NCBI GenBank assembly: GCA_964016885.1
Contig: OZ024750.1
Coordinates: 4,898,001 to 4,962,000 of the forward strand
Reading direction: 5' to 3'
Source of the DNA: Eledone cirrhosa
Lineage: Eukaryota
DNA: 64,000 nt
Made by a program: the position numbers and the translations under genes. Under the pieces are notes generated by a model. The model worked only from the letters and a program-made list of their open reading frames with translations, did not search any database and was not told the origin of the DNA. Below, piece by piece: positions 21,903 to 29,643 of this stretch. Numbering within the stretch: the first letter of the stretch is position 1; every line of letters starts with the position of its first letter.

Positions 21903-21985
21903 ATGTTGCTTCTGTCTGTTTGTCTTCTTATCTTCATTCTCATATCTGCATCTGCTCAAGTTGTACGAAAACCTGGGACTGGTAG
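21903..21985 (+). CDS. CRISP-like gene exon 1 (signal peptide)
   Basis: MLLLSVCLLIFILISASA-QVVRKPGTG; donor AG|GTGAGT, phase 2. Confidence 0.85.
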
Positions 21986-24365
21986 GTGAGTATTCCTCAA
22001 TTTTATTCAACAAACAAACCCTGTGTATTAATCTATATAATGTCTGTTAGTGTAAAGGTTTGGGGAGTAGTTATTAGTGTGTTTGATTCACGAGTATAAT
22101 AAGGTCTTGAGTTCGTTTACCGATGGCACCTTGTATGCTTGAACTTAAAACTTGATATAATATACATGTGGGCCACTGAGGTCTTCTCTGTGGACCTCAG
22201 ACCTTTTCAAAATGTCATGTGTAAGATATGATATCATATACATGTTCACCATTGAGTTATTCTCTGTGGGAACCATTGCTTTACGGTAATCAATCATTTT
22301 AGTGTTGAAAGATTTAATATCGATATAAACAGTCTGTTTATATTTATCTAAATCGACCACAATGTCACGGTGGCCATTAATGGTTTCGAATTTAGGCACA
22401 AGACTAGCAATCTAGCGGGAGAGGATAGTATTTCACTGGTATTTTATATCGTTAAACTCAGAAGGATGAAAAGTGAAGTTTACATCGGTGGGATTTGAAA
22501 TCAAAACAGTTTGTGTGACGCTCTAACGATCCTGCTAATCTGCCATCCTCTGACAGGGCAAGATTAAGCTTGCAGAGGGTCCTTGGCTGAAAATTTGACA
22601 GTCACCACCACCAACAACAACAAGAACAAGAACACCAACACTACCACCACCACCACCACCAACACTACCACCACCACTACCACCACCACCACCGCAAAAA
22701 CAACAACATCAACAACCATAGCCACCACCATACAAAATTAGATTAAGCTTACGTAGGGGCCCTGGGTGAACATTTCCCAGCCACAACCATAACCACCACC
22801 ATCACCACCACCACCACCACCACCACCACCACCACCACCACCACCACCACCACCACCACCACCACCATCACCACCACCACCATCACCACCACCACCATCA
22901 CCACCACCACCATCATCACCACCACCACCACCATACAGAATCGGATTTAGCTTGCATGGGGGTCTCTGGTTGACAATTAATCGGAGTACTTCCGTATTAT
23001 TAATGGCAGCAAATAAATTGAATGGTACCTTAAACATTGCGGGGCAGCCCTTACTGTCGCCCACTCACCACTGCCCCTTAATCCACCACTGACCTCTGGT
23101 GGCTTATAATTCTTTCTAAAATTGGCCACCAGAGGTCAAGCAATTTGTGGGGAAAGAAGAAAGTCAATTACATTGGCCCAATTATGTAACTGGTATTATA
23201 TATTATCGACCTCAGAAGGACGAAAGGCAAGGTTAACGATTGACCTGACCTTAGCGAGATTTGAATTGAGAACGTAAAATAGCGGGAACAAACACTGCTA
23301 AACATTACATCCGACGCTCTAACGATTCTGTCAATACCCAACACACACACACACCACCACACCACCACCACCACCACACACACCACCACACCACCACCAC
23401 CCCAACACACCACCACACCACCACCACCACACACACCACCACACCACCACCACCCCAACACACACCACCACCACCACCACCACCACAACACACCACCACC
23501 ACCGCCGCCGCCGCCACTGCCGCCCTGGTGGCTAATAATGGCTGCTAATCTACCGGATGTTTCGGCTTATAGTAAAAGTCCAAGAAAATCTCTTTGTAAA
23601 GTGAATATATTTTTATGTTCAGTAGTCAATAAAATATATTTACTTAACAAACTACAAAAGTGACGCTGTGTCAGTTGAACCTGCACCATTGAATATCTTA
23701 TTGAATCAACCTGAGGGAAGTTGATCCGTTTAACAAATAAAACATAAAACTGATCCAACTTTGATTTATATTCTTTTGTTTCTTTTATTTTGTTTGTTTC
23801 GTTTATTGGTTTCAATCATAAAGCCGCGGCCATCCTGGGGCACCGCCGAAGTTAAGGACCGAAATTCTCACTCACTTGAGGGAGGTTTTATTCTCTGAAG
23901 TCCTGCTGTCCAGCTCTCCTGAGAGTTTCTTACCACTACTATCCATCTCTTTCTCTCTCTCTGTACATATATATATATATATATATATTTGCACATAACA
24001 TCACAGCTTCAAATTTAGCTAAACTACCTAGCCGTAGGAACACGTGCAACCCAGTAGTTAGTACTAACTGTAATTGTAGGAATCGGGTTGACTGCCCCCT
24101 ATCCGGGAAATGCCTCTCTAGTAACATTGTCTACAAATGTAAGGTTGAAACACCCACGTCCCGTAGGGCCTACATAGGGTTAACCGCCAATAGATTCAGA
24201 TGGACCATAACGCACCAAAGTACTCAATACTTAGAGTAGTAGAGTGGGTAATAGGAACGAGTGGGACCCCGACGGCTGAGCTCAAGCCGTTTCGACGGCT
24301 AATTCTGGACTGGAATTAGCCGTCGAAACGGCTTGAGCTCAGCCGTCGGGGTCCCACTCGTTCCT

Positions 24366-29000: not shown

Positions 29001-29643
29001 CTACACTACACATCACCACAACACACCACACTACACTACACACCACCATAACACACCACCACAACACACCATACTAAATAACATGTATTTTTCTCGAATG
29101 AAACTCACCTACCACTTATATATTTAGGACCCTTCAATTTTACCCTTTGCCGTTCTGACAAGGACCCTTGCTGTCAAAACTGGGACCGCCAGTTCTGTAT
29201 ACCTGACACAGTTTACTTCAATTATATGGCTATCAACTGTGGCGCCACCTGTGAGTAAGTAGTTGAACTGTTTTCATTCTTTGACTTTCTTCGCATTGTT
29301 TGTTAATTCACTGTGATCTAAAGTATCCCTAAATTGGTGTAACTGATCCCTAAATTGGTGTATCAAATCCCTAAATTGGTCTAAAGTATCCCTAAATTGG
29401 TGTAACTGATCCCTAAATTGGTGTATCAAATCCCTAAATTGGTCTAAAGTATCCCTAAATTGGTATAACAGATCCCTCAATTGGTGTATCAAATCCCTAA
29501 ATTGGTATAAAATATCCCTAAGTTACGACCGTAAGCTAAATACCCTAACCACTAAGCCACGTGCCTTTACAATAATTATAATCAAGGAGGAAATATTTAC
29601 ATCTGAATGTTTACCTTTCAGCTCATATATGTGTTTGTTTTAA
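21903..29643 (+). CDS. Spliced gene (9 coding exons, 906 nt, ~301 aa): signal peptide + CAP/SCP domain + Cys-rich hinge + ShKT-like domain (CRISP-like secreted protein)
   Basis: All introns GT-AG with matching phases (2,0,2,0,2,1,1,2); exon lengths 83+193+77+154+119+98+33+127+22=906; CAP motifs ILATHRRYRS..ANLLLMEWD, VGQN, YTQMIWYETNKVGCG, YVCDYSPPGN. Confidence 0.9.
24190..24367 (-). mobile_element. Hairpin-plus-tail dispersed element, copy A
   Basis: Perfect ~55-bp inverted arms 24251-24367 plus conserved tail; abuts (TA)n. Confidence 0.75.
24513..24705 (+). CDS. CRISP-like gene exon 2
   Basis: ttttacag acceptor; RSSLDKRDQ...EKGRILATHRRYRSEINGANLLLM; donor ATG|GTAAGA. Confidence 0.9.
25888..25964 (+). 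CDS. CRISP-like gene exon 3
   Basis: ttttctag acceptor; EWDESLASLAQGQAERCVFGPGNLF; donor GTGAGT. Confidence 0.92.
26055..26322. repeat. 24/26-bp minisatellite in intron 3 of the CRISP-like gene
   Basis: Unit gtttctaccagtgttaaagtatccat. Confidence 0.88.
26377..26530 (+). CDS. CRISP-like gene exon 4
   Basis: ccattccag acceptor; LNGTNVGQN...NYIYSSNTCQTGKNCEAYTQ; donor CAG|GTAAAG. Confidence 0.92.
26522..26825 (+). repeat. 38-bp tandem repeat x8 containing the exon 4 splice donor
   Basis: Unit tatacacaggtaaagtaatatattataatgttggtgcc. Confidence 0.92.
27345..27463 (+). CDS. CRISP-like gene exon 5
   Basis: tttgcag acceptor; MIWYETNKVGCGLHFC...IYVCDYSP; donor GTAAGG. Confidence 0.93.
27795..27892 (+). 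CDS. CRISP-like gene exon 6 (end of CAP domain + hinge)
   Basis: ttttcgtag acceptor; GNYPEHPFFPSTHEACELCNLSPGTRCLHNQC; donor GTAAGT. Confidence 0.92.
28075..28407 (-). mobile_element. CR1-clade LINE 3' fragment in intron 6 of the CRISP-like gene
   Basis: LNLFSSERRRLTGDLILAYNLFNG...LRGHDKKL...F..RI..PWNRLPEVVVNA. Confidence 0.85.
28698..28730 (+). CDS. CRISP-like gene exon 7 (33-nt symmetric mini-exon)
   Basis: tttccag acceptor; KYCDPGLEPDC; donor GTGAGT; phase 1-1. Confidence 0.8.
29128..29254 (+). CDS. CRISP-like gene exon 8 (ShKT-like domain)
   Basis: tatttag acceptor; CRSDKDPCCQNWDRQFCIPDTVYFNYMAINCGATC; donor GA|GTAAGT (alternative T|GTGAGT at 29251). Confidence 0.85.
29315..29522. repeat. 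21-bp minisatellite with 63-bp higher-order period
   Basis: atccctaaattggt core with three alternating 7-nt variants. Confidence 0.85.
29622..29643 (+). CDS. CRISP-like gene exon 9 (terminal coding part)
   Basis: cctttcag acceptor; DSYMCLF* supplies a final Cys; AATAAA signals near 29868-29885. Confidence 0.6.

Follow-up and report, generated by a model that had tools for sequence, protein, structure and literature searches.

Vertebrate CRISPs (cysteine-rich secretory proteins) are defined by 16 conserved cysteines and by a six-cysteine ICR domain that directly follows the hinge. In molluscs, CAP-ShK genes date to the molluscan ancestor and occur in non-predatory species (PMC6409789). Their type II members carry a spacer before the CAP domain, a hard-to-recognise ShKT domain and other cysteine motifs, and in oysters these genes are mantle-specific (PMC6409789). 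Here we analyse a gene of the octopod Eledone cirrhosa that lies at positions 21903-29643 of a 64,000-nucleotide stretch of DNA (contig OZ024750.1, positions 4,898,001 to 4,962,000, forward strand), hereafter the window. An original prediction, made from the letters alone, had proposed a hidden nine-exon gene for a CRISP-like secreted protein, a candidate toxin. We find that the gene is a previously unstudied member of the known molluscan CAP-ShK proteins, belonging to an old molluscan lineage. With a probability of about 0.6, its product is a single-copy, old-lineage protein with a CAP domain, a hinge and an ShK-like tail that would act in an ordinary body secretion or an extracellular layer, bind lipids or surfaces independently of metal, and likely not act as a toxin.

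Nine exons and their octopod orthologs

Read from the sequence, the nine exons form a real, intact gene. They are listed here with their residue identities to the Octopus sinensis ortholog.

21903-21985, + strand: exon 1, with the start codon, the predicted signal peptide (about residues 1-18) and the start of the spacer; 20/27 identical
24513-24705, + strand: exon 2, first CAP helix with the H-x3-R motif, preceded by spacer that contains a dibasic KR site; 50/64 identical
25888-25964, + strand: exon 3, CAP helix, first CAP cysteine, and a Pro replacing the first tetrad His; 24/25 identical
26377-26530, + strand: exon 4, GQN motif, a Gln replacing the second tetrad Glu, Ala at the second tetrad His, one N-glycosylation sequon; 45/51 identical
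27345-27463, + strand: exon 5, C-terminal strands of the CAP domain; 31/39 identical, with a Pfam CAP match on its own
27795-27892, + strand: exon 6, four-cysteine hinge; 30/32 identical
28698-28730, + strand: exon 7, 33 nucleotides, which adds a two-cysteine module after the hinge and before the tail; 10/10 identical
29128-29254, + strand: exon 8, ShK-like domain with the CC pair and four more of its seven cysteines; acidic; 39/41 identical
29622-29643, + strand: coding part of exon 9, with the last cysteine and the stop; 6/6 identical
29644-29890, + strand: likely 3' untranslated region, its end inferred, with AATAAA at 29868 and 29879

All eight introns (331-2527 nucleotides) are GT-AG with compatible phases in the window sequence, and the spliced coding length of 906 nucleotides amounts to 301 codons and a stop. 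The nine-exon reading contains no frameshift and no premature stop among its whole codons; the six split codons, read by eye, are also stop-free. Of 105 candidate proteins, a search with exon 2 picked out a single one, XP_029658194 of O. sinensis (78% identity, E 4.5e-23). Over the nine exons in order, 255 of 295 whole codons (86%) are identical to this 300-residue protein; it differs by a single extra residue at junction 1 and otherwise by ordinary substitutions. Because all nine exons are colinear and non-overlapping on XP_029658194, the nine-exon reading lies far beyond chance. The nine small in-phase exons of the original prediction are borne out, and every peptide fragment it quoted is present in the window sequence, the dots in its hinge being schematic only. 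In all whole-protein tests below, the O. sinensis ortholog stands in for the spliced protein of the window.

The gene is already annotated in other octopods and is unstudied there. Its ortholog cluster holds eight sequences from O. sinensis (XP_029658194), O. bimaculoides (XP_014771924), O. vulgaris (CAI9717694) and Argonauta hians (GAB1602477), the last identical at 215 of 262 whole codons. The earlier description of the gene as hidden was an overstatement, given the existing annotations of its ortholog in Argonauta and three Octopus species. RefSeq labels the octopus orthologs 'cysteine-rich venom protein TEL1', a label that is probably automatic and was presumably copied from a snake CRISP, as such names arise. 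These orthologs are the same gene: the order of parts, all cysteines and the tetrad replacements are common to both. A literature search, thin in its coverage of subscription journals, found no published study of the octopod 'TEL1' gene; the one paper returned for its name and accessions concerned a jellyfish. No squid or cuttlefish ortholog was seen either, in searches that cannot settle their absence.

One annotated variant concerns the tail. Isoform X2 of O. bimaculoides drops exactly the ShK exon (exon 8) and reads exon 9 in an alternative frame. In the window this frame (29622-29701, + strand) is open for 25 codons and 64% alike to the isoform X2 tail. This may mean that the switch is conserved, or it may simply follow from conservation of the 3' end.

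Within the 3.0-Gb genome, all strong matches of the ortholog (8 stretches) fall at the window locus, and exon 5 matches only itself; judged by these searches the gene is single-copy. The next matches are weak (E 0.0025 and 0.44, 28% identity) and lie at a cluster of intronless CAP genes; two more are at chance level. Other CAP genes occur on four other contigs. The three intronless genes are 25-28% identical and far from the window gene in a 127-row tree. They form a tandem trio at 324.80-324.84 Mb of C1 (L002:709-2064, L003:1147-2052 and L004:1174-2046, all on the - strand), with 452, 302 and 291 residues, 21, 22 and 14 cysteines, and a tetrad that alignment finds altered in each. A homolog search with the L003 gene found no named relative. 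This expanded cluster is a better candidate for a venom CAP than the gene described here.

The introns are rich in microsatellites and tandem repeats. A 38-bp tandem repeat of 8 copies (26522-26824, + strand) begins within the end of exon 4, and every unit carries a copy of the exon-4 splice donor; if a later copy were used, a stop would enter two codons past the normal donor. Upstream, a 32-bp tandem repeat of 11 copies (21518-21876) ends 27 bases 5' of the start codon, a likely 5' untranslated or promoter region. Parts of intron 5 (27524-27685) match a high-copy repeat, with a summed contig depth of 350-870 against 5-8 in the flanks. Open frames in intron 6 (27991-28422, - strand) and intron 1 (23880-24239, + strand) resemble decayed retroelement pieces by eye; neither has a Pfam match at E 0.01.

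An old molluscan lineage, CRISP-like in layout

Outside octopods, the best single-stretch match among 1.84 billion representatives comes from the chiton Liolophura sinensis: XP_064616790, a 'cysteine-rich secretory protein 2-like' protein of 299 residues, scores 210 bits and the runner-up 124. The chiton protein is 39% identical to the octopod protein over 302 columns, and its 19 cysteines match one to one, among them the CC pair and those of the final C-x3-C-x4-C. Like the octopods, it has lost both tetrad histidines and has an acidic tail. It differs from them in two respects: the second Glu of the tetrad is retained, and the tail loop includes a Lys. In the quick tree of 127 rows, the chiton protein stands beside the octopods with a Shimodaira-Hasegawa-like approximate likelihood-ratio test (SH-aLRT) support of 93. 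In a careful tree of 44 chosen rows, octopods and chiton form a clade (98/82) that groups with proteins of Mytilus, Mizuhopecten and Pinctada (93/91), and the wider group takes in proteins of Owenia and Capitella. The CC pair is confined in this tree to the octopods and the chiton. Neither chitons nor bivalves are known to be venomous. The phylogeny with molluscan CAP proteins that had been proposed as a check yields an octopod and chiton clade beside three bivalve proteins.

How does the gene relate to the described molluscan types? It matches the type II proteins, which include Conus Mr30 and Tex31 and CreCAP-ShK 4-7, in its signal peptide, its spacer and its poorly recognisable ShKT domain with extra cysteine motifs; as in type II, its relatives include bivalve and annelid proteins. 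It differs in having no EGF-like domain and a spacer that is not low-complexity. By architecture only, the gene would fit the molluscan CAP-ShK type II.

The comparison with vertebrate CRISPs (natrin, triflin, pseudechetoxin and mammalian CRISP1-4) is looser. These share the CAP fold, the four-cysteine hinge and an ShK-type C-terminal module with the window gene, and are 21-26% identical to the octopod ortholog in structural alignments. The window gene differs from them by its 19 cysteines, its extra two-cysteine module, its seven-cysteine tail, the loss of the Zn-binding histidines and its long N-terminal spacer. None of 50 family rows matches Pfam Crisp (PF08562) at E 0.01, and an Atlas match to a Crisp cluster scores 0.79, below the lead level of the tool. 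Of the proposed CRISP architecture, the loose layout stands, whereas the cysteine count, the extra module, the tail and the Pfam result speak against the name. CRISP-like in layout, the gene nevertheless falls outside the vertebrate CRISP family.

An altered CAP groove and an acidic ShK-like tail

The CAP domain (PF00188, cut-off 21.1 bits) scores 46.8 bits in the O. sinensis and O. bimaculoides orthologs and 56.4 in Argonauta. Taken singly, the window's own exons stay below the cut-off: exon 5 comes closest with 19.8 bits (E 0.0016), and exon 3 has 13.5 bits (E 0.13). Of the seven exons scanned against Pfam, the four other than exons 3, 5 and 8 give nothing or a chance-level match. An AlphaFold model of the ortholog, built on a 17-row alignment, has a predicted local distance difference test score (pLDDT) mostly of 81-97 over residues 61-250 and is poor over the spacer and tail (38-72). 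Its best structural match is human GLIPR1 (3q2u; E 2.6e-14, template modelling score 0.81 by target), which fits the alpha-beta-alpha sandwich fold; snake CRISPs take ranks 3-13 (E 3.5e-13 to 2.3e-11). A sequence search gives the same top order, GLIPR1 best and snake CRISPs after it, with the plant protein P14a second. By profile and fold, the product is a member of the CAP superfamily, as had been proposed.

The groove of this domain is unusual. Of the signature motifs CAP3 (HNxxR) and CAP4 (G[EQ]N[ILV]) (PMC4118828), the first keeps H and R and has lost N, and the second keeps GQN with S as the next residue. The CAP metal-binding tetrad is His-Glu-Glu-His (PMC4921858). Exons 3-4 of the window and three orthologs have P, Q, Q and A at these positions. 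We compared them with the other 149 ortholog matches, of which the 121 with at most 480 residues were aligned and 28 longer ones dropped; at the first position 111 rows have H, at the second 64 have E and 56 have Q, at the third 119 have E, and at the fourth 117 have H. Because Gln is a recognised variant at the second place (56/121), it belongs to the family background there and only three of the four changes are real losses. By alignment, then, the tetrad is lost, and the loss of both histidines and of the last Glu is rare and real. SmVAL4 binds cholesterol despite the absence of both histidines (PMC4118828). Like the window gene, SmVAL4 and tablysin-15 have lost both tetrad histidines, and both are among the structural matches; their matched solved chains (155-232 residues) have no described ShK-like tail, unlike the window gene, and their histidine loss is likely independent of that in octopods. 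Because SmVAL4 and tablysin-15 both lack the histidines, the loss of the tetrad suggests a metal-independent mode and leaves the venom question undecided on its own.

At its N-terminus the protein is predicted to be secreted via a signal peptide, in agreement with the original prediction. The first 18 residues of exon 1 are hydrophobic (hydropathy 2.5-3.8 in each of the ten initial 9-residue windows). Further on, nothing membrane-like follows in the ortholog, where the highest 19-residue hydropathy is 0.69. About 45 spacer residues separate the signal peptide from the CAP domain and include a KR site at which cleavage may occur, and exons 4 and 8 contain N-glycosylation sequons. With 19 cysteines, the mature protein has an odd number. 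The hinge is spaced C-x2-C-x7-C-x4-C, and its four cysteines (C224, C227, C235 and C240, ortholog numbering) are invariant in 17/17 rows with pLDDT 81-92, so the hinge first noticed in the sequence is upheld; alignments to snake CRISPs extend through it. The cysteine pair of exon 7 is likewise invariant in 17/17 rows.

The tail consists of seven cysteines spread over exons 8 and 9. Against Pfam ShK (PF01549, cut-off 20.9 bits), exon 8 alone, without the last cysteine, scores 18.6 bits (E 0.0028) and the Argonauta protein 15.6 bits, while the O. sinensis, O. bimaculoides and chiton proteins have no match at E 0.5-1. Only 3 of 13 other aligned relatives pass this cut-off, and 16 of 50 family rows match at E 0.01. 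A tail profile from 11 relatives places exon 8 first among 1156 targets (E 1.3e-5), a result that is partly circular because these relatives were found with the ortholog. Four tail cysteines are invariant in the 17 rows and one is nearly so; the last lies two residues further out than in the ShK pattern. The predicted tail helices (265-275 and 282-294 in the ortholog model) have pLDDT 38-72. The tail is ShK-like by homology; of the ShKT-like domain first proposed, the homology holds and the Pfam threshold is missed, and the profile check came out above the cut-off for CAP in whole orthologs, below it for CAP in single exons, and below it for ShK in exon 8 and the octopod orthologs. The tail is acidic, with 3 K+R against 5 D+E, and in the window and three orthologs alike Lys is absent from the 13 residues that form the loop from its third to its fourth cysteine. 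It therefore does not have the Lys-Tyr dyad of ShK-type blockers (described in PMC6409789), and judged by its residues it is not a typical potassium-channel blocker.

From these features we envision the following scheme. The signal peptide would send the protein into the secretory path, where cleavage at the KR site may free the spacer. The central groove of the CAP domain would be unable to hold Zn or Mg and may still bind a sterol or fatty acid, by analogy with the tetrad-less SmVAL4. The acidic ShK-like tail would work as a protein-binding module and not as a potassium-channel plug, and the spare cysteine would join the protein to a second copy or to a partner. By analogy with the bivalve type II genes, the tissue may be epithelium, mantle or mucus.

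Venom, reproduction and other roles

Under the toxin role first proposed, octopods would have recruited the ancestral molluscan gene for their saliva or venom, where the product would act on channels of the prey or scavenge its lipid signals. We consider this role unlikely, and the product is likely not a venom toxin: it is single-copy, has chiton and bivalve relatives and an acidic tail without the dyad, and its best structural and sequence match, human GLIPR1, is not a toxin. The Hapalochlaena venom-gland CAP is of type I with canonical ShKT domains (PMC6409789), unlike the tail of the window gene. Nor is the ortholog listed as the best hit of any leading protein in a proteome of O. vulgaris posterior salivary glands, which counts 1868 protein groups, 12 of them CAPs (PMC7693380). 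Tables S1 and S5 of that study (S5 to the last of its 3670 rows) contain neither XP_014771924/-925/-926 nor 'TEL1' nor two UniProt identifiers, in a comparison that covered one species, one gland and the best BLAST hits of leading proteins and left out the nr hits of groups 690-693 (Tex31-like) and four further CAP groups of Table S2. Other CAPs do appear in Table S5 (XP_014790560 once, ACJ22636 three times, and XP_014788268), and eight CAP groups seen in Table S4 point to other proteins where hits were seen.

Besides the narrow scope of that comparison, several points weigh against the ordinary secreted protein that we prefer. CAPs are among the most abundant venom-gland families of O. vulgaris (PMC7693380), and ancestral CAP-ShK genes were recruited into the salivary gland of the vampire snail (PMC6409789). 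Snake CRISPs are close structural matches, and the octopod stem branch is long (0.47), with the last tetrad Glu lost. Tablysin-15, which also has no tetrad histidines, is a salivary protein of a blood-feeding fly. An absent dyad does not exclude channel activity (PMC6409789), and old venom lineages evolve slowly, so that conservation cannot separate toxin from non-toxin there (PMC4619613). The node that joins octopods and chiton has a modest SH-aLRT (82) with both branches long. Finally, lipid binding is proposed from family precedent, and we found no expression data for the window gene or its orthologs.

A role in the reproductive tract, where the protein would coat sperm, spermatophore or egg and modulate sperm ion channels in the manner of mammalian CRISPs, seems to us improbable as well. 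The layout of CAP domain, hinge and ShK-like tail does recall the CRISPs, which are tied to mammalian reproduction (PMC6409789), and a single conserved copy with a tail-less isoform in O. bimaculoides would suit such a function. However, reproductive proteins often diverge fast, whereas the tail is identical at 39 of 41 positions between species, and the family has no Pfam Crisp match in 50/50 rows.

We hold as doubtful a bolder scenario, in which the octopod-chiton CAP-ShK branch, with its dead groove and spare tail cysteine, would have given octopods a covalently dimerising or partner-linking extracellular ligand whose ShK domain is switched by exon skipping and which was possibly recruited into a secretion acting on prey or mates. 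Still less probable is an immune protein of the haemolymph or wound response: many animals use CAP proteins to defend themselves by immunity or to modulate a host, and the product is predicted to be secreted and glycosylated, but no gene-specific support exists, and a single copy with slow change is atypical of expanded immune effectors. A chance reading of nine pieces, or a dead gene, is very improbable, for although single exons fall below Pfam cut-offs and no RNA run was listed for Eledone cirrhosa, the eight canonical in-phase introns, the colinear 86% identity to annotated orthologs and the absence of stops and frameshifts all speak against it.

Elsewhere in the window, an intronless open reading frame of 252 codons (17580-18338, + strand) lies 3.5 kb upstream of the CAP gene and encodes a REG-2-like hydrolase of the HAD family (79.5 bits for Pfam Hydrolase; 194.7 bits for TIGR02252, against a cut-off of 155.2). 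Arrays of C2H2 zinc fingers at 3036-4370 and 9837-10628 (both - strand), with 13 and 8 scored fingers, resemble the expanded zinc-finger family of octopods.

The case is a caution that a CRISP-like layout, together with a 'venom protein' name assigned automatically, can point the wrong way, here for a gene that has a chiton counterpart and no usual blocker residues. Its importance is modest: it offers the CAP field a natural test case, a conserved, tetrad-less CAP-ShK protein with an odd number of cysteines and an annotated isoform without the ShK domain. If the protein were salivary and active on prey after all, it would represent a second, type II-like CAP lineage in cephalopod venoms.

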